From positions 1 through 27,186 of IMG/VR virus record IMGVR_UViG_2537561936_000020: 27,186 nt of DNA; one strand, 5' to 3'. The translations under genes and the position numbers were made by a program. Shown one piece after another: positions 18,226-27,186 of this stretch (positions within the stretch are counted from its first letter, which is position 1; each line of letters starts with the position of its first letter). This DNA comes from a virus (lineage: Duplodnaviria > Heunggongvirae > Uroviricota > Caudoviricetes). The notes beneath the pieces are model-generated. The model made no database searches. It was given only the letters and a program-made list of their open reading frames with translations, and was not told the origin of the DNA.

Positions 18226-19185
18226 TTACTCCTTGTCCATTGCGTACAGCCCATTAACCAGAGCAAACTGTGGCACCCCGTCCGCGATGAAAGTCGCATT
18301 AACTCCGCAGGCTTCGCGGATAGCGGGTGCCACAATCTCCGCCCCGCCACCGACAACCATCACCCGCCCGTAACCCGAAAAAACCGCCAGCGCGCGGATC
18401 ACGCGTTGTTTCAGTGTTTCTTCCTTTTCACGAATAACCGCCATCAGGCTGGCGTAATGCGCGTCATTGTGGATGTGCTGGCGCAGCCAGGCTTCATCAT
18501 GGCGATGTTCGATAATGGTATTGGCGATGTGGTGACTGGTGCGCATACCGTTAGTGGCCATCACCGACAGTACGGCATCGGCCATAAGAGAAACGCCTAC
18601 GTGTGGATCGCAAAACACCTGGCTGATACCTGCCAGTTGCCCCTGAACCTTTGCCACATCCAGCGTGGTTCCGCCCAAATCCACAATCAGCAGGGATTCA
18701 AACGGACTCATGTCAGCCAGTGCTTTAAAGCCAGCCGGAATGGATTCAGGCATAACCCGTACGTTACGGATAGTGAATGCTTCGCCGTTCTGGTACTCCA
18801 CCGGGCGCATGACGTTCGCTTTTTTGCGGTTGATGTTGGCCATGTCCGGCTGTGCGTTTGTGTCGAAATATTCGCTCAGTGGCAGGGTAACAACCACATC
18901 CACTTCCTGTGGCGTGATGTCTGATTTGACCAGCGCGTGATGAATGGCAATGACATTCACATCGCTGTACTGGTATTGCGTGTCGGTCGTCTGGACAAAG
19001 CGATCGCTGACCGGATCAAAACCATAGCGCACGCCATCAAGCATGTAGTTAGCAGGCTGCGAGCCACCGAACGGCGCAGACCATTCCGACTTGAAGCTGT
19101 TCGGGCTGATGGCGTTGCGGCGTTCGCCGTTCTCAGTCCATGCCAGCTTGATGTTGGTGGAGCCGTCGTCGATGTAAATTTTCAT
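18226..19185 (-). CDS. parM: ParM/StbA-like actin-type segregation ATPase
   Basis: 319 aa. MKIYIDDGSTNIKLAW…ISPNSFK…QYSDVNVIAIHHAL…EVDVVVTLPL…VVGGGAEI, closely following the R1 ParM pattern as recalled. Confidence 0.85.
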   Translation of the reverse strand: MKIYIDDGSTNIKLAWTENGERRNAISPNSFKSEWSAPFGGSQPANYMLDGVRYGFDPVSDRFVQTTDTQYQYSDVNVIAIHHALVKSDITPQEVDVVVTLPLSEYFDTNAQPDMANINRKKANVMRPVEYQNGEAFTIRNVRVMPESIPAGFKALADMSPFESLLIVDLGGTTLDVAKVQGQLAGISQVFCDPHVGVSLMADAVLSVMATNGMRTSHHIANTIIEHRHDEAWLRQHIHNDAHYASLMAVIREKEETLKQRVIRALAVFSGYGRVMVVGGGAEIVAPAIREACGVNATFIADGVPQFALVNGLYAMDKE

Positions 19186-19215: not shown

Positions 19216-19328
19216 GTTTACGGGATTCTGAAATCCCGTTTTTGCCTGTTTTGTGCGCGCTTCATATATCGCTGCGCGTTTTTTGCTCATTTACGGGATT
19301 CGTGAGTCCCGTTTCTGTCTGTTTTTTG
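19216..19328. repeat. Candidate parC centromere/operator: two ~40-bp direct repeats each containing a 20-bp palindrome
   Basis: ACGGGATTCTGAAATCCCGT (19220-19239) and ACGGGATTCGTGAGTCCCGT (19293-19312), 73 bp apart, each followed by TTT(T/C)TG(C/T)CTGTTTT(G/T)TG. Lies directly upstream of parM. Confidence 0.6.
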
Positions 19329-22087
19329 TTTCCACTGGTCAGGCCACCCCGCAGCAGGTCTGCTTTGCGGCTGGCGCGTTCAGTGGTTTCACTGATTCTC
19401 TGTGCGTGCTCTGCGTCGCGGATGGCGCGCAGCATGTCAGAAAGCACGGTAACGGGTGTTTTCATGGTGTTCTGGTCCTGCTGAAGTGTGGATGCCAGGC
19501 GTGCGGCGGCTTCAGGGTCTGATGCCCCCAGCTGTGCCAGATAGCTGGCGACCGGGTTATGGCGGATCTCCGTGCTGCTTACGCCATGATTACGGCTCAG
19601 ACGCTGCCAGAGCTGCGTGATTCGGCTGTCCGGGCGGGTATCCGGTTTGCGTACAATTTCAAATCCCTGCGGTGCAATGATGCTGCCGTCAACGTACAGA
19701 CTGCCGCCCCGTAACAGGTGCTGCATCTGTTGTTCACCGATATGCAGGCCGAGAGATTCAGCAGACTCCCGCCATTCTTTAGCGAGTAACTCGTGGTTAT
19801 CAGGCAAAGGCCGCTGCTGTTTGCGGCTCTGTGTCCAGTTCTGCATTTCATCGCTGCTGTTTTTTGCCTGTTTGTCACGAAGCGAACGCATCAGCGCCCG
19901 GCGTTCGTGCCGTTTCAGTGAGCGCATCCATTCATTTACTTCAACGCCGTCAGGAAGCTGCGGCCACGGTGCTGGCCGTTCTTCCGGCTGTTCTGTCCCG
20001 TTGTTGCCTGTTTCCTGTACACGGGGACAGTTATTGCCACGAGTCCAAGGGGCGGCAGGGCCGCCCTGAAGGTCAAAACCATTTTCGCGGGCGCTGTCTT
20101 CCGCTTCCGGTTTACGTCTTACCAGCTTCCAGTTATCCGGATGCGTGCACACACGGGAGGATTCCCCGATGAATGGCGACCAGATCCCGTAAATCTGTAC
20201 ACTCTGTTCGCCGTAATCGTTCAGCTCATCTGCGAGGTCGTAGGCTGTGCGAATCAGGTAGTCCTTGCGCGGAACAAGTACGCCACCCTGTTTTTCAATG
20301 TAGGTGGCAAAACATCCGGCATCAGCGGCAGCGAGTACCGCATCCATTGCGTCATCCTTCAGCCGTTGCGGGCCTTCCGGGTTGCGTGCCATCTGGCTGG
20401 CAAGGCGGCGGAGTTCACGCCACACCTGACGGGAGGGGATGCCAAAGAACTGGAACTGGCGGACCCGGTGAAGGCGCGCCCAGCCGATGGCTCGCTCCAC
20501 GCTCTCGGCCATTGATTTACCTGTTTCGTGGTCAACGCGTGGCTTGCCCGTTTTCGGGTCGATGCCATCCACGGCGCGGCTGTCCAGGTTCTTTCCGATG
20601 TAGGTGGCGATGTAGCTGGTTGGCGTGCCTTTTGAGCCGTCGACGTACTCCGCCTTAAAGCGTGGGGTAATATCATCACCCAGCTCGTGACGATCTTCCT
20701 GAATGGCAATATCGCGGGTGTGGGACACAATGGTGTCGATTTCTTCCGGATGAGCAAAGACCATCATATGCCAGTGCACGGTGCCGTCATGGTGAGGCTC
20801 CACCGTGCGGATGCCATACCAGCGCAGGCCGTCGCGGTTCAGTTTCTTGCGGACCGCTGCAAAAAACGTGTTAACCAGGTAATCGCTGGAGTCGCGCATG
20901 GTGGCCCCGTTCCATTTGGGATTCGGATGACCGTTCTCTGTTGTGGCGTGGTATTTTGACGGGCAGGTGACAGTTAGAAACACCGCTTTGTCGCCACGGG
21001 CTTCGGCCAGAAGTTCCAGCCCCTTCATGGTGGCCATCATTTCTGCCTTACGGTGAACCGGGTTACTTACTCCCGCGTAATACACTGTCTCGAGATCAAT
21101 CGTGAAACCGTCTTCGTTTTCCAGTTCGAAGCTCTTCAGGAAGTCGCGGGTTTTCTCGCGCTGTGCGCGAAACTCGCTTAACGCGTCCTGGCTCAGATAG
21201 GGTGATGTTTTTCTGGAAACCAGACAGGCGGCGCGGAGTTGTTCTTCTCTCCACTCACAACGTAACAGCCACAGTTTGCGTTTCCACCAGTCCGCACAGG
21301 TCAGGCGAAGGATTGCGCCCGGCAGCAGTTCCGTATCCGGTTCGCTCTTGTTCAGGGCTTCGTAATGTGGCGGCATGATGTGCAGGCGTAATGCGATACG
21401 AGCCAGCATCCGGTAAGCCTTCAACATTACATCCATGGTCAGCTCGCCATCTCTGGCACCAAAGCCATCGCAGAGTGTTTCGAAGGTGCTGCTGAACATC
21501 GCCGCGGTCATGGTGGCCAGCGTCTGTATCTGGTGCTTGTTGAGCTGCGGCAGGTAAAGCAAATCGTCCAGGCGTTCGCGCCCGGCAAGGGAGCGATAAC
21601 CCGGTGTCAGCCAGCGTCCGTCAGTGCGATCCAGACGTTCGAATATTTTGCGCAGGGTTCCGCGTGCATAGCGTTCCGCCTGCCAGCTCTTTTTGCCTTT
21701 CTGGCGATCGGCTTCCTGTTTTTTGCGCAGGAAAGAGAGGTGGCGGCTCAGTGGTTCACGCAGATAAACAGGTAGTGCCTTTAGTGTGGCAAAGGCACGG
21801 GCTACTGGGTCTTGTTCTGTTGCCCGGCGCTTACTGATGATGCTCTGTGCCAGCTTTTCACGCTGTCCGGCTTCCTCAAGGGATGCCATGAGTTTTTTAC
21901 CCATGGCGGATTGTGCGAAAAAGGCTTCTTCCTTCGCTTCCTGTTCTTCCTGTGCCCTTTTGTCTGCCTCAAGGTAGTAACGGATGGCGCGTTGCAGGTC
22001 GGTTTCAGTTTCCTGCCTGCGCTCCGTAAACCTGGCCGGATCAATGGCTGGCCGTGGTTCATTCCAGCTCCATGCAAACTCGCTCAT
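19262..22087 (-). CDS. A: Replication initiation endonuclease A (rolling-circle Rep, P2 gpA-like)
   Basis: About 941 aa. HUH-type motif DGTVHWHMMVF and tyrosine pair TSYIATYIGK. Start chosen at Met10 (ATGA overlap with the upstream gene). Confidence 0.85.
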   Translation of the reverse strand: MSEFAWSWNEPRPAIDPARFTERRQETETDLQRAIRYYLEADKRAQEEQEAKEEAFFAQSAMGKKLMASLEEAGQREKLAQSIISKRRATEQDPVARAFATLKALPVYLREPLSRHLSFLRKKQEADRQKGKKSWQAERYARGTLRKIFERLDRTDGRWLTPGYRSLAGRERLDDLLYLPQLNKHQIQTLATMTAAMFSSTFETLCDGFGARDGELTMDVMLKAYRMLARIALRLHIMPPHYEALNKSEPDTELLPGAILRLTCADWWKRKLWLLRCEWREEQLRAACLVSRKTSPYLSQDALSEFRAQREKTRDFLKSFELENEDGFTIDLETVYYAGVSNPVHRKAEMMATMKGLELLAEARGDKAVFLTVTCPSKYHATTENGHPNPKWNGATMRDSSDYLVNTFFAAVRKKLNRDGLRWYGIRTVEPHHDGTVHWHMMVFAHPEEIDTIVSHTRDIAIQEDRHELGDDITPRFKAEYVDGSKGTPTSYIATYIGKNLDSRAVDGIDPKTGKPRVDHETGKSMAESVERAIGWARLHRVRQFQFFGIPSRQVWRELRRLASQMARNPEGPQRLKDDAMDAVLAAADAGCFATYIEKQGGVLVPRKDYLIRTAYDLADELNDYGEQSVQIYGIWSPFIGESSRVCTHPDNWKLVRRKPEAEDSARENGFDLQGGPAAPWTRGNNCPRVQETGNNGTEQPEERPAPWPQLPDGVEVNEWMRSLKRHERRALMRSLRDKQAKNSSDEMQNWTQSRKQQRPLPDNHELLAKEWRESAESLGLHIGEQQMQHLLRGGSLYVDGSIIAPQGFEIVRKPDTRPDSRITQLWQRLSRNHGVSSTEIRHNPVASYLAQLGASDPEAAARLASTLQQDQNTMKTPVTVLSDMLRAIRDAEHAQRISETTERASRKADLLRGGLTSGNKKQTETGLTNPVNEQKTRSDI

Positions 22088-22473
22088 GGCTGGTATCCCG
22101 TCACGCGCTGCCACTCCTGCGAGAAGATGGCGGAAAGGCGGTTAAATTCAGCGGTGTATTCACTCAGCGAGGCACACCCGCCAGCAGTGCGATGCGCCAG
22201 CATTGCCGCGAATACGGAGGCCGGGGAGTCGTAATACGCCAGCAGTGATTCGCCGTGTGGTGTCAGGCAGTGCAACGCCAGCCCGTGTGGTGTGAAGTCC
22301 ACGCGGTAGCAGTCGTCTACTGTGAAATAAAGGGTGTCCGCATTCTCCGGTTTTGTGGTGCGTGCTCTGTTGTCACGACCACGGATGTAGAGATCAAATA
22401 ATCCCTGAAGAATGGGAGCCAGACGGGTGTCCTGTGTGCGCACCCATCTTGTGAAGTCATGAGCGTCAATCAT
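22084..22473 (-). CDS. Hypothetical early protein
   Basis: 129 aa ORF, translationally coupled to A. No recognisable motif. Confidence 0.55.
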   Translation of the reverse strand: MIDAHDFTRWVRTQDTRLAPILQGLFDLYIRGRDNRARTTKPENADTLYFTVDDCYRVDFTPHGLALHCLTPHGESLLAYYDSPASVFAAMLAHRTAGGCASLSEYTAEFNRLSAIFSQEWQRVTGYQP

Positions 22474-22545
22474 GCTGCAATTCTCTTTACTACAGATGTG
22501 CGAAGGCCTCCCGCCGCAAGGTGCAGGAAAGGCCTGGAACAGGAA

Positions 22546-22776
22546 TTAATGGAGTTTGTTTTGCTGCTGAAAGAGCTGCTGAAGCTCGCGCAGATCATCC
22601 GCCAGATAGCTGAAAACAGCGGATGAATAGAGGTTTGAAAGTTCGCAGCTACGCTCATGCAGCATATTGATGTGCATGATTTTAGCGACGCGGAATGCGC
22701 GGGAAAGTCTGCGGTTGATTTCAGTCTGGATGTGACGACGCTCCGCGATAGCGCGGTGCTGTTTGCGGTTTGCCAT
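22546..22776 (-). CDS. Hypothetical small basic protein
   Basis: 76 aa, protein-like composition; GAAGAGG 9 nt upstream of the ATG. Overlaps the long ORF 22470..23402 in another frame. Confidence 0.45.
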   Translation of the reverse strand: MANRKQHRAIAERRHIQTEINRRLSRAFRVAKIMHINMLHERSCELSNLYSSAVFSYLADDLRELQQLFQQQNKLH

Positions 22777-22958
22777 GGTGTTTGGCCTCTTCGTTTGTGA
22801 GTTTTTGGATACTCACCAACCAGAGTTGAGAATCTCGGGGTGGCGAGACGTACGGGGTTCTCAACACCGGCAAACGAAGAAACCGGCCCGACCGAAGTCG
22901 GCCCCGTACGCCCCACCATAATTCGTGTGCGAAAAAGACGTGGCAATACAGTACGCAC

Positions 22959-22979
22959 AAAAAAACCGCTGGCGCGGTT
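22959..22979 (-). terminator. Rho-independent terminator inside the early operon
   Basis: On the - strand AACCGC-GCCA-GCGGTT followed by TTTTTTT. Confidence 0.55.
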
Positions 22980-23089
22980 GTGCGCTTCGTTTGTCAGCAG
23001 GTTGAGAATCCCGGCACCCGTTTTATGAGGTGCAGCAGAAATGTAACCTGACTGATTGCGGCATGGCAAGCGGTTTTTTTGTGTGTGCA

Positions 23090-23402
23090 TGCTCTGATTT
23101 CTTACTGGTTCAGAAAAAAAATCAAAAACCTTGTCAATGCGTTGCAACAGCTCTTGCTGTATTGCTTCCGGCGTTTCCGGTTCGCCTGGCGCCTCCAATG
23201 TCGCGCAGAAATCAGCGATTTCATGATGGAGCGTCAGGCGAATGGCAGGAGCCGTGGTTCTGGCGTGCTCCAGCTCATCCAGCAATGCCAGCACCGCAGA
23301 CGGCGAGAGCATTGCGCGAAATGCCAGTAATTTTTGAGGTGTTGCCATTCGTTGCAGGGCAAATGCCAGTTCGCGTAGCTTCTGGTGGTTGATGGTGCTC
23401 AT
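23090..23402 (-). CDS. Hypothetical early protein (3' boundary uncertain)
   Basis: ATGA overlap with the upstream gene. First ~100 aa look protein-like; the ORF stays open to 22470 through a hairpin-rich segment of atypical composition. Confidence 0.4.
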
Positions 23403-23665
23403 GTTCTGGCTTCCTTCAGTAGCTGGTTAAACATGTGAGTAAGTGGATTGCTACACCCGAACGGCATCGGGTTTACGTGGTAAGAAGCCTGGCCTCCAGT
23501 TTTGCGAGCGCGACCACCTGTGCTGCGGTTTGTTCTGATGACTAAGCCGCCGCGCCAAAGTTGGCGTAACTCAGCATTAATGGCTGTGGTTGGAGTATTC
23601 AGTGCTGCTGCGATTTCTCCGCCGCTACAACCCGGATGGGTAGCGATGTAGTCCAGAATGGTCAT
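23399..23665 (-). CDS. Hypothetical protein, possible winged-helix DNA-binding fold
   Basis: 88 aa; coupled to its neighbours by overlapping stop/start codons. Confidence 0.5.
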   Translation of the reverse strand: MTILDYIATHPGCSGGEIAAALNTPTTAINAELRQLWRGGLVIRTNRSTGGRARKTGGQASYHVNPMPFGCSNPLTHMFNQLLKEART

Positions 23666-23865
23666 CTGCGTGGCTCCTGTACCTGTCGGATAAGATTCAC
23701 CCGCGCCACGTTGGTGGCGCAGAAATAAGTGCCGTCAGTGAGGTAGATGTGGTGTGCATCCTTTTCCGAACGATGTTTGTCGATAGTGGTAATCAGTCGT
23801 TCGTCGACCTCGTATTCGCGCCCTCTGGAGGTAAAGCGAACGACGGGAAAATGCTTAATTGCCAT
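23662..23865 (-). CDS. Hypothetical protein
   Basis: 67 aa ORF in the operon, with an ATGA overlap to the next gene. Confidence 0.45.
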   Translation of the reverse strand: MAIKHFPVVRFTSRGREYEVDERLITTIDKHRSEKDAHHIYLTDGTYFCATNVARVNLIRQVQEPRR

Positions 23866-23888
23866 TGCGCCCCCTTTGTCCAGTAACC

Positions 23889-24299
23889 CTATGCGTTAAA
23901 TACGGTGTGTCGGGCGTCATCAATGAATGCAACTTGAGAGCGCTCTATCAGGCGGAGATTTGTCAGAATTTCTGATTCCCTTATGGGGTGAGGAGTGATC
24001 AGGTATTTATCCTGTAACCCGGCGATAATGGTGTATCGCTGTAGCTCCGAGCCAATTGTGTAAATAAGGCGTCCGGTGTTAGACAAATCCAGTCCGGTGA
24101 CTGGTTGTGTTCTGAGAACCGCCAGTTCAGCATCCTGTTTTGCGATAATTTCGGCTGCTTCTGCCGTGACTCTTGCGACTATCAGTGTGTGGGTTGCGAC
24201 GTCCATATGATTATTTGCTAGGGCTTTTTTCGCTACTTCGTTTTCTGTCTTTGAAATTTCTTTCAGTGCTCTGATGATACCTTCTTCTTTTGCGTGCAT
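23889..24299 (-). CDS. Hypothetical protein
   Basis: 136 aa ORF in the early operon. Confidence 0.5.
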   Translation of the reverse strand: MHAKEEGIIRALKEISKTENEVAKKALANNHMDVATHTLIVARVTAEAAEIIAKQDAELAVLRTQPVTGLDLSNTGRLIYTIGSELQRYTIIAGLQDKYLITPHPIRESEILTNLRLIERSQVAFIDDARHTVFNA

Positions 24300-24393
24300 T
24301 TTTGTATCTCCGTTATTTGCGTGTGCGAATACCTCCGTTAATACGGATGGTTTTCACGTTTTCTTATTTAATTTGATGTTTTATTTGTATCGT

Positions 24394-24506
24394 TATTCAC
24401 CAGTGAAAAAACGTTCAATCTTTTTTACTGAATGAATAATTCGCATAATTCCAATGGCGCAGGCCACCGAAATAATCAGAACAAGCCATGAGATAAATAT
24501 ACTCAT
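24394..24506 (-). CDS. Small hydrophobic peptide (37 aa, single predicted TM helix)
   Basis: MSIFISWLVLIISVACAIGIMRIIHSVKKIERFFTGE, translated by hand. Its ATG overlaps the TGA of the upstream 80-aa gene (ATGA). Below the ORF-track size cut-off. Confidence 0.45.
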
Positions 24507-24745
24507 GCGATATTGCCCAGCTTATACGGTTCAATATGTTCCCCGCATTCTGCGGCACAGATCAGCTCGGAAAGTTCGTTAAGTGCATCCAGATCATCAG
24601 CGTAAAAAGCGACGTCATACAAACTCCGGATTGCCCTGGTCAATGAGTCACGGGCTGCACGTTCAGCATGAGCGCCTGATGCACTTAAGCGAAAATAAAA
24701 TCGTTCAAGTGCTTTGTTAATGAGAGTTTTATATTCTTTGCCCAT
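24503..24745 (-). CDS. Hypothetical protein
   Basis: 80 aa ORF in the early operon. Confidence 0.5.
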   Translation of the reverse strand: MGKEYKTLINKALERFYFRLSASGAHAERAARDSLTRAIRSLYDVAFYADDLDALNELSELICAAECGEHIEPYKLGNIA

Positions 24746-24756
24746 CGCAACGCCCT

Positions 24757-25035
24757 TTAATCTGCTTTCTGAATTTCAGCTTCTGAATCCATACAAATAA
24801 TTTCGATATATGGTTCATCGCCATTAACCTGACGTGCCTTTTCAGCTTCGCTAATGATTTCTCGCACGGTCTGGTACGGAAGCTCCACAGTCAGGCGCGT
24901 ACCGTTCAGATAAACGTAAGTAGCTGCGTTTTTTTCGGATGGAACAACTCCGTCAATGGCTGATGCGCGTAATAACAGTTCACCGCGAAAATCAATAAAA
25001 CGGATAAATACACCTTGTGCATGCTCTTTGGTCAT
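24757..25035 (-). CDS. Hypothetical protein
   Basis: 92 aa from the Met preceded by AGGTG; the ORF-track upstream extension was rejected. Confidence 0.5.
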   Translation of the reverse strand: MTKEHAQGVFIRFIDFRGELLLRASAIDGVVPSEKNAATYVYLNGTRLTVELPYQTVREIISEAEKARQVNGDEPYIEIICMDSEAEIQKAD

Positions 25036-25045
25036 AAAGCACCTG

Positions 25046-25387
25046 TTATAAATCAGCCTGTTTAATAAAACTTTGCCCACGAAGCAGACGATCAACCGTG
25101 CGAAGTGCTTCGTATAATGTGAAATCCTGCCCGAATTGATTGTCGCCGCAGCTCAATGCAAAAATGCGGTTTCCGGTAAACGGATTGCGTGGGCATTTGT
25201 GGACCACGATTCCAGCTTTCTCAATCAGCCAGGCATGCTCGCCGATTTGTTTTACTGGGTAGCCATCCGGCGTTGCGTGTGTATCACTCAGGCTGTAGCG
25301 GATGTTGCTGCGTGATGCACTGGTAGCGAAACGGTTAGCGTGGCGTTCAGCACCATTACGAAAGCGTGAATTACGTTGCTGTTTCAT
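25046..25387 (-). CDS. Hypothetical protein
   Basis: 113 aa; second gene of the early operon after cox. Confidence 0.5.
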   Translation of the reverse strand: MKQQRNSRFRNGAERHANRFATSASRSNIRYSLSDTHATPDGYPVKQIGEHAWLIEKAGIVVHKCPRNPFTGNRIFALSCGDNQFGQDFTLYEALRTVDRLLRGQSFIKQADL

Positions 25388-25405
25388 ATCAAAACTCCCT
25401 GCATC

Positions 25406-25732
25406 TCATGCAGCAAAATTAAGAAAGCCTAATCCCAAATCTTCCGCCAGCTTCTTGGCTTTCTTAAGCCAGTGATTGCGCCAATCTTTACGCTCAGGAG
25501 GAAGCTGTTTCGTTGCGTCATAGACCATTTCGAGCCACTCATTCCAAAGGATGAGAAGACGGCGCGAACTCCCTTCCTCGCCTAAAACCTCGCGCTCAGT
25601 GGTTAGAGGGATGAGTCGACGCTCTACCAACTTTCTTACGGCTGATTCGGTCTTACCTGTGCGGCGGGAAAACTCATCGACGGTGATGGGGTCTGGGATC
25701 TTAAACAATGCCCTCAATAGTTCTTCATTCAT
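25406..25732 (-). CDS. cox: Cox-like regulatory protein / excisionase
   Basis: 108 aa from MNEELL…PDPITVDEFSRRTGKTESAVRKLVERRLIPL…, resembling P2 Cox (…IPYQEFAKLIGKSTGAVRRMIDKGKLPVI…). Divergent from C. Confidence 0.75.
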   Translation of the reverse strand: MNEELLRALFKIPDPITVDEFSRRTGKTESAVRKLVERRLIPLTTEREVLGEEGSSRRLLILWNEWLEMVYDATKQLPPERKDWRNHWLKKAKKLAEDLGLGFLNFAA

Positions 25733-25827
25733 GTGATAATCTCCCTGTTTGGGGTATTTCTTGCGACGGATGCCCCAAATCAAACTCATTTGTATAAACA
25801 TTAATACAGACGTTGGAGAATTGCAAC
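25733..25827. promoter_or_regulatory. Divergent C / cox promoter-operator region
   Basis: Imperfect inverted repeat TTTGGGGTA…TGCCCCAAA (25748-25779) and an extended -10-like TGTATAAA (25791-25798) ahead of C. Confidence 0.45.
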
Positions 25828-26130
25828 ATGCGTATGACTATTGGAGAGCGCATAAAAATCATGCGTGAAAGCGAGAGACTTACTAGCCTCCCGGATACAG
25901 CAAAAATGCTTGGTTTAAACCGTGATGCTCTGTGGAGATATGAAAGCGGTAAAACTATCCCTAATGCTGAAGTAATTGAGCAAATACTAAACAACCCCAG
26001 ATTTGAGAAATATGCGTTGTGGTTTATGACTGGGAAAATTGCGCCTGAATCCGGGCAGATAGCTCCGGCTCTCGCACACTATGGGCAAGAGCCAACGGAC
26101 TTACCCCCATCCGAAAGGAAAATTGGCTAA
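25828..26130 (+). CDS. C: Immunity repressor C (P2 C-like HTH)
   Basis: …LWFMTGKIAPESGQIAPALAHYGQ… is near-identical to the P2 C C-terminus as recalled. Start among ATGs at 25813, 25828 and 25834 is uncertain. Confidence 0.85.
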   Translation: MRMTIGERIKIMRESERLTSLPDTAKMLGLNRDALWRYESGKTIPNAEVIEQILNNPRFEKYALWFMTGKIAPESGQIAPALAHYGQEPTDLPPSERKIG

Positions 26131-26196
26131 CCCTTTATTATTCTTACGTTTTACAAACTGGAAATGTCTTTCCTCGTTTCACCGGAGGGCTTGCCA

Positions 26197-27186
26197 ATGG
26201 CAATTAAAGCGCTCGATGGTGGACGGTATAAAGTGGATGTTAGACCGCGTGGCCGAAGTGGACGTCGGATTCAGCGGATTTTTAAGAAAAAGGCAGATGC
26301 AGTGGCCTTTGAGCGTTATGTTCTCAGCCACATGCACGATAAGGAATGGCTTGAAAAGCCAACAGAGCAACGTCATCTCTCAGATCTGCTTCCGTTATGG
26401 TGGGAATTGGGTGGACGCAATAAGCCATATGCTAACGGCGTTCTAACCAGGTTGAAAAAAATCATCAAAGAAATGAATGATCCAAGGGTTAGCCAGATTA
26501 ATGCTCGTTTCATGGCCGCTTATCGAAGCTCCCGTTTATCCTTGGGAGTAAAAGAGTCTACTGTTCGGCGTGATGAGTCGGATCTCGGAGGAATGTTTAC
26601 ACTCCTGGCAAATGCCGGGGAATTTCACGGAGAAAATCCGCTCCGCGCCCTCCCCTCTTTGAAACGAAAATCACCCGAAATGACGTATCTCACCACGGAA
26701 GAAATCGCCAAATTACTGGATGCAGTAAGCGGTGATGCCCGGCGGATTACGCTACTTTGTCTCAGTACTGGGGCGAGATGGGGAGAAGCGAAAAATCTGC
26801 GCGCGGAACACATCATCAATAATCGCGTGACGTTTAACAAAACTAAAAACGGAAAAGTTCGAATTATTCCTGTCTCTGATGAAGTTGTTAGTGAGATCAA
26901 AACAAAGAAATCCGGCCTTTTGTTTGACGTCAATTATGAGGAATATCGCAAGGTGCTTCGCAGTGTTAAGCCAGACCTACCAAAAGGACAGGCTGTACAT
27001 GTTCTACGCCATACCTTTGCTGCTCACTTTATGATTAATGGAGGAAATATACTTACGCTCCAGCGAATTATGGGGCACGCCACGATCCAGCAAACTATGA
27101 CCTATGCGCACCTCGCTCCTGATTTCCTCCAGGATGCAATTTCACTTAATCCGTTAAAAGGAGGCATCCACATTTCATCCACATAA
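26197..27186 (+). CDS. int: Tyrosine integrase (P2 Int-like)
   Basis: MAIKALDGGRYKVD…LSTGARWGEA…HVLRHTFAAHFMINGG…AHLAP. GGAGGG sits 7-13 nt upstream. The stop codon is the last three bases of the window. Confidence 0.9.
   Translation: MAIKALDGGRYKVDVRPRGRSGRRIQRIFKKKADAVAFERYVLSHMHDKEWLEKPTEQRHLSDLLPLWWELGGRNKPYANGVLTRLKKIIKEMNDPRVSQINARFMAAYRSSRLSLGVKESTVRRDESDLGGMFTLLANAGEFHGENPLRALPSLKRKSPEMTYLTTEEIAKLLDAVSGDARRITLLCLSTGARWGEAKNLRAEHIINNRVTFNKTKNGKVRIIPVSDEVVSEIKTKKSGLLFDVNYEEYRKVLRSVKPDLPKGQAVHVLRHTFAAHFMINGGNILTLQRIMGHATIQQTMTYAHLAPDFLQDAISLNPLKGGIHISST

Follow-up and report, generated by a model that had tools for sequence, protein, structure and literature searches.

The window (the whole 27,186-nucleotide stretch of viral DNA analysed here) carries on its minus strand, between positions 23399 and 25387, seven small reading frames of 113, 92, 80, 37, 136, 67 and 88 aa, numbered ORF1 to ORF7 from the cox gene onwards (Table 1). 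The lengths given for these frames in the original prediction, and the limits it gave for the block, agree exactly with the mechanical ORF list, and RefSeq annotates seven CDSs with identical ends on an identical chromosome. For ORF2 we took the ATG start (92 aa); the mechanical TTG start would yield 112 aa. The block follows cox, as had been claimed: ORF1 begins 18 nt after that gene and is followed after 10 nt by ORF2 and after a further 11 nt by ORF3, which is joined to ORF4 by an ATGA overlap. ORF4 and ORF5 are 93 nt apart, ORF5 and ORF6 23 nt, and ATGA overlaps again link ORF6 to ORF7 and ORF7 to an eighth frame, ORF8. These junctions bear out the description of the block as tightly packed. 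Its description as mostly translationally coupled holds for two of the six internal junctions, which are 4-nt overlaps, but not for the others, of which three are short gaps carrying a Shine-Dalgarno-like purine run and one is the 93-nt spacer. Similarly, the block does lie downstream of cox and upstream of the replication gene A, but it does not abut the latter, from which it is separated by the coupled ORF8, a pair of RNA genes, an epsilon-like gene and the gene for a 129-aa protein.

Table 1. Features of the early region, in order from the immunity repressor to the replication gene.
Feature	Position	Strand	Description
C-type immunity repressor	25813..26130	+	divergent from cox; 52% identity to P2 C, E 2e-32
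cox, 108 aa	25406..25732	-	first early-operon gene; 28% identity to P2 Cox, E 1e-7
ORF1, 113 aa, DUF4761	25046..25387	-	basic disordered N-terminal tail plus five-strand/one-helix domain
ORF2, 92 aa	24757..25035	-	acidic, pI 4.7; N-terminal part beta-rich, plus helix; phrog_3800, E 8e-59
ORF3, 80 aa, DUF4754	24503..24745	-	phrog_2549; stop overlaps ORF4 start (ATGA)
ORF4, 37 aa	24393..24506	-	hydrophobic helix at residues 3-22, basic C-terminal tail; G+C 34%
AT-rich spacer, 93 nt, 33% G+C	24300..24392	-	marks exchangeable cargo slot
ORF5, 136 aa	23889..24299	-	phrog_9338, E 1e-73; facultative cassette gene
ORF6, 67 aa	23662..23865	-	basic, pI 9.4; phrog_3459, E 1e-45; stop overlaps ORF7 start (ATGA)
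ORF7, 88 aa	23399..23665	-	minimal winged helix-turn-helix (MarR_2-like), pI 10.0; stop overlaps ORF8 start
ORF8, Ead/Ea22-like, coupled to ORF7	23102..23402	-	99 aa in relatives (59 loci)
IsrK-like RNA (P4 seqA homologue)	22959..23033	-	Rfam RF01394, 62.0 bits (gathering 50), full length
C4-like antisense RNA (P4 CI RNA homologue)	22836..22923	-	Rfam RF01695, 79.2 bits (gathering 45), full length
epsilon-like 'derepression protein', 76 aa	22546..22776	-	PF25738, 29.3 bits (cut-off 27)
129-aa protein	22084..22473	-	overlaps gene A start; phrog_3237, E 1e-59
replication endonuclease (gpA-like)	19262..22114	-	distal end of early operon; 'replication endonuclease' in annotated relatives

By its sequence, the element belongs with the P88-like (Xuanwuvirus, Peduoviridae) prophages of E. 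coli. The window is 95% identical at the nucleotide level to Escherichia phages vB_EcoM-569R5, vB_EcoM-705R2 and PV468777 and 90% identical to P88, and its genes stand in an identical order; the region thereby combines synteny with at least 90% nucleotide identity to the P88 group, the features by which a Xuanwuvirus (P88-like) early operon is recognised. Genes of the same families stand in the same order in P88 (NC_026014, gp04-gp09), the three phages just named and Xuanwuvirus P884B11, namely cox, DUF4761, a hypothetical gene, DUF4754, a 37-aa membrane protein, in some cases the 136-aa hypothetical protein, a 67-aa hypothetical protein and a winged helix-turn-helix (wHTH) protein. P88 itself differs in that it lacks ORF5 (its slot is empty), has an 81-aa allele of ORF7 and, ahead of its derepression gene, follows ORF7 with extra cargo (an Ead/Ea22-like protein, a membrane protein and a serine-protease lipoprotein); its C/cox immunity type is also unlike that of the window, with 37-40% identity between the C proteins. 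The integration site of the prophage adjoins pheL-pheA, and the order of int, C repressor, divergent cox and block, and then replication endonuclease A is the P2 layout. The cox product, which reaches 24.6 bits against Pfam Phage_Cox (under the 27.5 cut-off), also matches phrog_11919 and is named 'Cox family DNA-binding protein' in RefSeq, while gpA is unusually long here, at 950 aa. Two E. coli chromosomes are 100% identical to the block, and 1399 of 5426 complete E. coli genomes (26%) contain a match to it.

Our analysis establishes all seven ORFs, including the one of 37 aa, as real genes. Across 80 related viral contigs, median pairwise dN/dS was 0.07, 0.25, 0.06, 0.18, 0.41, 0.14 and 0.12 for ORF1 to ORF7 respectively, i.e. 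every one of them is under purifying selection, and six of the seven match a PHROG family at E 1e-32 to 1e-74. That some of these ORFs, and ORF4 above all, are chance reading frames could be argued from the very short length of ORF4 and from the lack of any match for it in Pfam, PHROGs, NCBIfam and PADLOC. We consider this extremely improbable, as ORF4 is conserved in both length and frame at 81 of the 82 related loci, shows a dN/dS of 0.18 over 28 alleles, and has both a clear transmembrane helix and the overlap with ORF3, while the remaining ORFs have dN/dS values of at most 0.41 and PHROG matches at E 1e-32 or better. The seven ORFs are conserved genes at the head of the early lytic operon in a prophage that is very common in E. 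coli, and the block very probably represents the promoter-proximal accessory part of a P88-like early lytic operon in a prophage beside pheL-pheA. Existing annotation already lists all seven as hypothetical or DUF proteins. The finding is an ordinary one; nothing unusual was found, and the current understanding of P2-family phages is unchanged by it. The block is among the most widespread uncharacterised prophage genes of E. coli, and any function assigned to it would annotate thousands of genomes.

The original prediction read the block as small uncharacterised genes in the early-operon position of a P2-family phage, a reading that gains support from the layout and from homology searches, which set the genes apart from those of P2 and 186. 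We compared the seven ORFs with orf78, B, orf80-83 and orf91 of P2 and with cII, fil, dhr, orf80-84, tum and orf97 of 186, and none of the seven proved related to the early proteins of either phage (hhalign probability <5%). For the 186 early proteins, all hhalign probabilities were below 3% and no BLASTP match fell below E 0.3. Clear homology of every ORF to P2 or 186 early proteins, the outcome that had been named as refuting this reading, was sought by BLASTP and profile-sequence hhalign and was not found. The best candidate, ORF3 as a diverged C-terminus of P2 gpB, was rejected (BLASTP E 0.007 in a 23-sequence database, hhalign probability 2%). The genes of the block do not represent diverged forms of the early genes of P2 or 186. 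The resemblance to P2 lies in the divergent C/cox pair, the small packed genes (orf78, B, orf80, orf81, orf82, orf83) and the rolling-circle initiator A, whereas the families that the P2 record names for orf82 (DksA-like zinc finger), orf80 (DUF2732) and orf83 (DUF5405) are not seen in the ORFs of the window. Phage 186 (apl, cII, fil, dhr, orf80-84, A) likewise has small early genes between a Cox-like excisionase and A, several of them annotated as non-essential or host-directed, with Fil blocking division and Dhr blocking host replication; its switch, however, is of the CI/CII/Tum kind and not a P2-type C repressor.

ORF1-4 and ORF6 are present in nearly all of the 82 related loci, irrespective of C/cox immunity type, and form a constant, lineage-specific backbone in the P88 lineage, where variation is confined to ORF5, which is either there or missing, and to ORF7, which has two alleles and is missing in some cases. 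The expectation that genes in this position vary between phages is thus true between genera, but not of these five genes within the lineage, and the analysis provides a clear division between the backbone (ORF1-4, ORF6) and an exchangeable cassette (ORF5). Two backbone proteins belong to named Pfam DUFs: ORF1 matches DUF4761 (PF15958) at 232.7 bits over model positions 1-105 of 105, and ORF3 matches DUF4754 (PF15946) at 181.7 bits over positions 1-80 of 80, both with a gathering threshold of 27. The tail of ORF1 comprises residues 1-35 (pI 11.9 over residues 1-40) and its domain about residues 38-105. A profile scan of genome contigs with the DUF4761 alignment recovered 3 loci only, which supports a narrow distribution. 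The globular part of ORF1 (residues 45-103) is kept in Enterobacter phage phiT5282H (Novemvirus), at 40% identity and an hhalign probability of 98.7%, in a short DUF4761 gene that, like ORF1, lies shortly after cox; a 40% tblastn match to the domain also occurs in Salmonella phages SEN4/SEN5. These short DUF4761 proteins of phiT5282H and SEN4/SEN5 are 68 aa long and lack the basic N-terminal tail, and the neighbouring genes in phiT5282H differ (a Fil-like protein, a Dam methylase and a P2-like A). The family of ORF2 is tiny: a search of 1.84 billion proteins yielded only 20 representatives at E <=1e-3, and ORF2 matched no Pfam or NCBIfam family and no PDB relative.

Structure models were of moderate quality (mean pLDDT 70-72) and fold searches with them gave nothing specific; in particular, structure searches returned no fold match for the small beta/alpha domain of ORF1, and profile searches of PDB sequences with the ORF1, ORF2 and ORF5 alignments returned nothing credible. 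The literature searched contains no mention of DUF4761, DUF4754 or the RefSeq accessions of the block proteins, and the block is not dealt with in papers on P88, on the diversity of P2-like phages or on hotspots of P2. The claim, made by eye, that none of the genes could be assigned a function stands for ORF1, ORF2, ORF3, ORF5 and ORF6, but generic roles can be put forward for ORF7, with its wHTH, and ORF4, a transmembrane peptide.

By its sequence, ORF4 is a single-pass membrane peptide; its Kyte-Doolittle 19-residue mean peaks at 2.68, at residue 3, and its P88 counterpart is annotated as 'membrane protein'. A type I toxin-like peptide (Hok, Ldr or TisB type) was considered and found no support, as such peptides are recognised by a cis- or trans-encoded antisense RNA regulator and a stand-alone locus: Rfam has no RNA family within 23399-25387 on either strand, and ORF4 is embedded in the operon through its overlap with ORF3. 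Homologues of ORF6 form 64 clusters, almost all from Escherichia. By eye, ORF2 and ORF6 have a common 'hxhRF..G....I....YL.G' pattern that is FlbD-like. Descent of ORF2 and ORF6 from one small beta domain was rejected, with a BLASTP E-value of 0.24, an hhalign probability of 0.2% and no Pfam family for either. The profile phrog_19053 spans both ORF6 and ORF7, but we did not accept these as halves of one protein: no fusion occurs among the 64 ORF6 clusters, and the gene upstream of the ORF7 homologue in Stx phages is unrelated to ORF6. We treat the span as a merged-annotation artefact, with ATGA coupling as the only link between the two genes.

ORF7 scores 29.1 bits (cut-off 27) against PF12802 (MarR_2), the level at which a wHTH is recognised by the MarR models, though over model positions 9-61 only; against PF01047 (MarR) it reaches 17.0 bits, under the 24.6 cut-off. 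It belongs to phrog_1687, 'MarR family transcription regulator'. Among solved sequences it comes closest to FeoC/YhgG and MarR-type regulators, but with E-values of just 0.1-0.9; the solved MarR proteins match at E 0.4-0.9 over about 40 residues. The full MarR architecture takes up about 140-150 aa, and in it the wHTH lies between N-terminal and C-terminal dimerisation helices. ORF7 does not have this architecture, because the match begins at residue 2 of a protein of 88 aa and leaves no room for N-terminal dimerisation helices, and on its sequence ORF7 is better called a minimal wHTH protein. An indel of 7 residues, placed in the presumed wing, separates the 88-aa from the 81-aa allele, and homologues with 42% identity are carried by Stx-converting lambdoid phages.

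ORF5 is an optional cassette, and the slot that it occupies is exchangeable. Among 78 related loci, the slot between ORF4 and ORF6 holds ORF5 in 37, is empty (61-86 nt) in 35 and contains other ORFs in 6. The ORF5 family comprises 85 clusters that are 55-97% identical, almost all from E. coli/Shigella plus one from Citrobacter. Its dN/dS is the highest of the block, at 0.41 overall and 0.54 in the hairpin, and no region exceeds 0.54, i.e. positive selection was not found. AlphaFold2 (AF2) modelled an N-terminal antiparallel helical hairpin (residues 3-64) with a pLDDT of about 95, followed by a poorly modelled C-terminal domain (44-66). Alternative cargo genes encode proteins of 105, 122 and 109 aa, and the 122-aa one has the same hairpin (hhalign probability 97.6%). 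Within the spacer, a conserved inverted repeat (TCCGT-ATTA-ACGGA, 24334-24347) is maintained through a compensatory T:A to C:G change, with TCCGT/ACGGA in 26 loci and TCCGC/GCGGA in 41. The spacer with this repeat, lying before ORF5, could be an internal regulatory point; a consensus promoter scan detected no separate promoter for the ORF5 cassette or the spacer.

These observations suggest how the block may work. Once the C repressor is derepressed, the seven genes would be transcribed as one unit from an early promoter facing C; this co-transcription is drawn by analogy with P2, because the consensus scan detected no early promoter. Translation would be chained through the three ATGA overlaps (ORF7/ORF8 included) and the gaps of 10-23 nt. 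The products, of 4-15 kDa and without an enzyme signature, are probably stoichiometric binding proteins and not catalysts; Pfam, NCBIfam and PADLOC revealed no enzyme or defence signature in the ORFs of the block, and the best E-values against PADLOC-DB defence models were 0.007-0.06 over short stretches, short of a significant match. By binding DNA, ORF7 may tune transcription of the phage or the host; ORF4 would be inserted in the inner membrane; and ORF1 (through its basic tail and small domain), ORF2, ORF3 and ORF6 may, early in lytic growth, attach to partners of phage or host origin, with ORF5 as a probable dispensable add-on whose hairpin would be a common scaffold for different C-terminal domains. 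Overall, the genes most likely encode small proteins that act by binding and serve accessory purposes, regulatory or host-directed, although each specific function is inferred, and the block would play a role like that of the mostly non-essential orf78-83 of P2 and fil, dhr and orf80-84 of 186, without kinship to them. Host takeover as the task of any of the seven ORFs is speculative, and the strong constraint on ORF1 and ORF3 (dN/dS 0.06-0.07) would suit genes more central than the word 'accessory' implies.

Several more specific functions can be weighed against this reading. One possible form of it, with which it overlaps, is a set of host-takeover toxins of the 186 Fil/Dhr type, in which ORF4, with or without ORF3, blocks division or membrane functions and ORF1, ORF2 or ORF6 blocks host replication or transcription. 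The block occupies a position equivalent to that of fil and dhr, the short DUF4761 gene of phiT5282H is directly followed by a Fil-like 'cell division inhibitor' (phrog_816), and ORF4, itself conserved and single-pass, is coupled to ORF3; no ORF, however, is homologous to Fil or Dhr (hhalign probability <2%), and we regard this form as doubtful, if tenable. The constraint on ORF1 and ORF3, which resembles that on core genes, would also suit a replication-accessory function, in which one or more of ORF1-4 is a functional analogue of P2 gpB (a helicase loader for the lagging strand) or another cofactor of gpA. In P2 the corresponding place, two genes beyond cox, is taken by B; the ORFs examined from cox to gene A yielded no homologue of B; and a second genus of Peduoviridae has the DUF4761 domain in the same slot. 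Yet the sole sequence hint, between ORF3 and the C-terminus of P2 B, fails on profile comparison, ORF1-4 show no ATPase, helicase-binding or DNA-binding signature, the 186 record marks orf80-84 as not essential, and no P2 B match exists among the 186 early proteins compared. Replication of 186 needs only A, and a helicase loader is therefore not obligatory in the family. We consider a replication-accessory function improbable.

A further candidate is a counter-defence or inter-phage conflict module, in which ORF5 (possibly with ORF1-3 and ORF6) would be made first on derepression and inhibit host or rival-phage immunity, with ORF7 acting as an Aca-like autoregulator. Small size, early expression and absence of homologues are typical of such inhibitors. 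The ORF5 slot has at least four states, ORF5 is the fastest-evolving gene of the block, its diversity of 55-97% lies within one species, and its hairpin scaffold bears alternative C-terminal domains. As in anti-CRISPR/aca operons, which we invoke as a functional analogy only, a small, variable, lineage-restricted gene (ORF5) is accompanied by a small HTH gene (ORF7, two genes downstream), with an inverted repeat upstream, here just before the slot. These features (variable cassette, HTH protein, inverted repeat) are circumstantial, and no promoter was detected at the spacer for the cassette. Unlike acr/aca operons, no homology to any Acr or Aca was found, and ORF7 is neither adjacent to ORF5 nor dependent on it, being present with or without it. 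Positive selection is also unsupported, as dN/dS in ORF5 is nowhere above 0.54, and the recognised variable hotspot of P2-like phages lies elsewhere, between gpA and gpQ (PMC9122126). A counter-defence module is accordingly rather unlikely in our view. We attach a similarly low likelihood to the broader proposal that the slot between ORF4 and ORF6 has not been described before, that the ORF5 family inhibits host defence or competing P2/P4-type elements, and that ORF1-4 form an unrecognised host-takeover module. If true, such a module would be present in about a quarter of E. coli genomes, and the ORF5 family would be a helical-hairpin scaffold with swappable C-terminal domains that yields early-expressed inhibitors.

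The stretch between the block and the replication gene contains a P4-type RNA immunity/derepression cassette. ORF8, which precedes it, is frameshifted three codons ahead of its stop by a T8 run at 23114-23121, where relatives have T7, and this produces a mechanical ORF of 310 aa; the match of ORF8 to PF13935 (E 1.5e-4) is below cut-off, and RefSeq treats it as a pseudogene. The IsrK-like RNA has its own intrinsic terminator at 22964-22979 in a terminator scan. P4 also has matches to RF01394, upstream of its CI RNA, and to RF01695, and the epsilon-like protein is 29% identical to P4 epsilon (E 1e-8). An IsrK/C4/epsilon cassette thus precedes A in this phage, while none is annotated in the P2 record. 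The 129-aa gene that follows is carried by only 20 of the 82 related loci.

The right end of the window runs from integrase through the C-type repressor, cox and the seven-ORF block to the replication endonuclease, which is the layout of the P2 early region. The seven minus-strand ORFs appear in our ORF list exactly as described in the original prediction, and RefSeq annotates the same seven CDSs in an identical chromosome. The junctions are gaps or ATGA overlaps (cox-18 nt-ORF1-10 nt-ORF2-11 nt-ORF3-ATGA overlap-ORF4-93 nt-ORF5-23 nt-ORF6-ATGA overlap-ORF7), so the block is tightly packed, as had been claimed, while the coupling said to link most of the ORFs is reduced to strict overlap at 2 of the 6 internal junctions. 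A further ATGA overlap joins ORF7 to the start of ORF8, an eighth ORF past the block.

Features of the early region (positions in the window)
Feature	Position	Strand	Evidence or remark
Integrase	26164 to window end	+	right end of the window
C-type repressor	25813-26130	+	52% identical to P2 C
cox	25406-25732	-	28% identical to P2 Cox
ORF1	25046-25387	-	113 aa
ORF2	24757-25035	-	92 aa counted from ATG
ORF3	24503-24745	-	80 aa
ORF4	24393-24506	-	37 aa
ORF5	23889-24299	-	136 aa
ORF6	23662-23865	-	67 aa
ORF7	23399-23665	-	88 aa
Promoter-like hexamers TTGCCA-18-TACATT	23040-23069	-	just upstream of IsrK-like RNA
IsrK-like RNA	22959-23033	-	Rfam full length, 62.0 bits, above gathering score
Intrinsic terminator of IsrK-like RNA	22964-22979	-	terminator scan
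C4-like RNA	22836-22923	-	Rfam full length, 79.2 bits, above gathering score
Epsilon-like 'derepression protein'	22546-22776	-	76 aa; PF25738; 29% identical to P4 epsilon, E 1e-8
Replication endonuclease (gene A)	19262-22114		950 aa; beyond the seven ORFs

By megablast against deposited phage genomes, positions 22500-27186 are 95% identical to Escherichia phages vB_EcoM-569R5, vB_EcoM-705R2 and PV468777 and about 90% identical to Citrobacter phage Shae_phiSM, Xuanwuvirus P884B11 and phage P88; all are myoviruses of the P2 family that belong to the genus Xuanwuvirus or stand close to it. Two E. coli chromosomes carry the block at 100% identity, and in one of them the prophage adjoins pheL-pheA; among 5426 complete E. 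coli genomes, 1399 have a match to it, with at least 80% of its length covered in 831 of these. It is an ordinary block that deposited phage and E. coli genomes already carry under the same annotation; what makes it of interest is its prevalence and a clean split between backbone and cassette, rather than anything unexpected. Our literature search found no paper treating its protein families.

Among 80 related viral contigs retrieved with ORF1 as query, median pairwise Nei-Gojobori dN/dS values for ORF1 to ORF7 were 0.07, 0.25, 0.06, 0.18, 0.41, 0.14 and 0.12, which indicates that all seven are protein-coding genes under purifying selection; neither the frame nor the length of ORF4 changes in 81 of the 82 related loci. 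That the ORFs are non-coding artefacts can be ruled out for practical purposes. In Pfam, ORF1 matches DUF4761 (232.7 bits) and ORF3 matches DUF4754 (181.7 bits), both over the full length, and no family was matched by ORF2, ORF4, ORF5 or ORF6. PHROGs assigned six ORFs, ORF7 to phrog_1687 ('MarR family transcription regulator') and the others to families of unknown function (phrog_2492, 3800, 2549, 9338 and 3459), with no match for ORF4. The latter is a single-pass membrane peptide by its Kyte-Doolittle profile, in which one strongly hydrophobic helix (mean of 2.68 over the 19 residues from residue 3) is followed by a basic tail. Two suggestions made by eye failed when tested: ORF2 and ORF6 did not prove to be paralogues, and no ORF6-ORF7 fusion turned up, although the phrog_19053 profile covers both.

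The families are narrow, with the ORF1 domain and ORF7 reaching further. DUF4761 forms 153 clusters, nearly all from Enterobacteriaceae, at 64% identity or above, and its alignment found three loci when searched against one genome per species; ORF6 forms 64 clusters, almost all Escherichia, and for ORF2, phmmer run exhaustively against 1.84 billion representatives returned only 20 proteins at E <= 1e-3. The globular part of ORF1 (residues 45-103) corresponds to a 68-aa protein of Salmonella phages SEN4/SEN5 and Enterobacter phage phiT5282H (Novemvirus). AlphaFold2 models, built from shallow alignments and of moderate quality, give ORF1 a disordered basic tail (residues 1-35) and a five-strand, one-helix domain (pLDDT 80-88); no credible match came from PDB sequences searched with the ORF1, ORF2 and ORF5 profiles. 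An 84%-identical DUF4761 gene, of the type typical of enterobacterial P88-like prophages, was also seen on a 226-kb contig (NZ_JBQPOM010000071.1) labelled as the Firmicute Vagococcus sp. WN89Y, and ORF6 at 90% identity in an Enterococcus faecalis record; both probably reflect contamination or mislabelled assemblies.

ORF7 only just passes the MarR_2 cut-off (29.1 bits against 27), and its match is confined to the wHTH portion of the model. It has a pI of 10.0 and an H1-H2-H3-wing pattern, and its two natural alleles, of 88 and 81 aa, are set apart by a 7-residue indel that falls in the presumed wing. Among solved sequences, FeoC/YhgG and MarR proteins come closest, at E values of only 0.1-0.9. 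Because ORF7 is this short (88 aa) and its match begins at residue 2, it has no room for the dimerisation helices of true MarR proteins, and 'minimal winged-helix DNA-binding protein' is the safer name. Homologues with 42% identity occur in Stx-converting lambdoid phages, in the small-gene region between repressor and excisionase/integrase, and more distant ones in Klebsiella, Serratia and Pseudomonas phages.

Across the 82 related loci, ORF1-4 and ORF6 keep 74-100% aa identity whatever the immunity type. The ORF4|ORF6 junction was compared in 78 loci: 35 have nothing there (61-86 nt), 37 have ORF5 (136 or 138 aa), 4 have an unrelated ORF of 105 aa and 2 have a pair of ORFs of 122 and 109 aa. 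The 122-aa protein has an N-terminal helical hairpin in common with ORF5 and a different C-terminus (hhalign probability 97.6%). The 85 ORF5 clusters, at 55-97% identity, come almost entirely from E. coli/Shigella, with a single one from Citrobacter. No other ORF of the block has a dN/dS as high as that of ORF5 (0.41 for the whole gene, 0.54 for the hairpin), and no region of it rises above 1. At 33-34%, the G+C content of ORF4 and the adjoining spacer (24300-24506) is lower than that of the block (46.8%) and of the window (52.9%). Within the spacer (24300-24392) lies an inverted repeat with 5-bp arms, TCCGT-ATTA-ACGGA (24334-24347), a type found in 26 loci; another 41 carry TCCGC-ATTC-GCGGA, in which one pair is altered on both sides by a compensatory T:A to C:G change. 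The repeat is kept with the slot empty or filled, and may form a hairpin in RNA or serve as a binding site for a protein. Read on the plus strand, it has a T-rich run after it and receives a terminator-like score. ORF5 is thus dispensable cargo occupying a defined slot, and this slot is not the gpA-gpQ hotspot that has been reported for P2-like phages (PMC9122126). On the other side of the backbone, C identity ranges from 33 to 99% across the related loci (L001-L084) and cox is often swapped for an unrelated type; this mosaic immunity region beside steady ORF1-4 (at least 74% aa identity, ORF1 at least 91%) points to recombination breakpoints between cox and ORF1.

All P2 and 186 early proteins were compared with the window ORFs by BLASTP and then by hhalign with alignments of each ORF family. 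Only C and Cox matched; every ORF of the block remained below 5% hhalign probability against P2 orf78, B, orf80-83 and orf91 and against 186 cII, fil, dhr, orf80-84, tum and orf97. No ORF of the block thus proved homologous to a known P2 or 186 early protein, and the cautious reading of the block as uncharacterised small early genes of a P2-family phage is supported. The block replaces the P2/186 early genes in a lineage-specific way and is no diverged copy of them. A gpB-like replication cofactor among ORF1-4 is improbable; the sole hint, a likeness of ORF3 to the C-terminus of gpB (the P2 B protein), fails at 2% hhalign probability.

All seven ORFs are genuine genes, and they occupy the part of the early operon nearest its promoter. 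They include one wHTH protein, one membrane peptide and one facultative cassette, with no identifiable enzyme or defence protein among them; NCBIfam and PADLOC searches added nothing for the seven. We are largely confident of a general picture in which they are co-transcribed, translated in a chain and encode small stoichiometric binders. Following the P2/186 paradigm, inactivation of C would probably let the early promoter transcribe the genes together, chain translation would probably follow, and the products would probably bind their partners early in lytic growth. ORF7 would target DNA, ORF4 would work in the membrane, and the remaining ORFs would have phage or host partners. Host takeover of the Fil/Dhr kind, a special case of this model, is a minority possibility: in phiT5282H the 68-aa DUF4761-type protein occupies the same slot soon after cox, ahead of a Fil-like 'cell division inhibitor', and 186 fil and dhr found no counterpart in the block. 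Slightly more doubtful is a counter-defence cassette in which the winged-helix ORF7 would be Aca-like.

Between the block and gene A, the IsrK-like and C4-like RNAs and the epsilon-like gene follow the order of satellite phage P4, where the same two Rfam matches stand upstream of epsilon; IsrK and C4 have been equated with P4 seqA and CI RNA (PMC3632133). The window thus has a P4-type RNA immunity/derepression cassette (22546-23069, minus strand) within a P2-family prophage, and this cassette could gate expression of the antirepressor and gene A. We found no description of such a cassette for P88-like phages. ORF8 (region 23102-23402) is an Ead/Ea22-like protein, 99 aa long in 59 related loci. 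In the window, a T8 run (23114-23121; T7 in PV468777), which may be a true mutation or a homopolymer artefact of sequencing, shifts its frame three codons before the stop and creates a mechanical 310-aa ORF across both RNA genes and, in another frame, the epsilon-like gene; RefSeq flags the frameshifted ORF8 as a pseudogene labelled 'ash family protein'. Pfam Phage_ASH weakly matches the translated IsrK/C4 RNA region (20.3 bits, below the cut-off of 26; about 22780-23090, minus strand), which raises the possibility that what is annotated as 'Ash' protein is in part translated from RNA genes. The frame across this region is open (205-206 aa) in 58 related loci.

A second variable slot lies between ORF7/ORF8 and the derepression genes in related loci (L005-L084). 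From ORF8 to the IsrK-like RNA, some relatives carry a 276-aa SPFH-type lipoprotein with small partners (27 loci), and others a multi-HTH protein of 186 aa or different ORFs. In P88 the slot is filled by a serine-protease lipoprotein and a membrane protein, whereas the slot of the window is empty. Just downstream of gene A, a 319-aa ORF (18226-19185, minus strand), whose counterpart in matching records is called 'plasmid segregation protein ParM', lies on the side of gene A where the P2-like gpA-gpQ defence/cargo hotspot has been described (PMC9122126).
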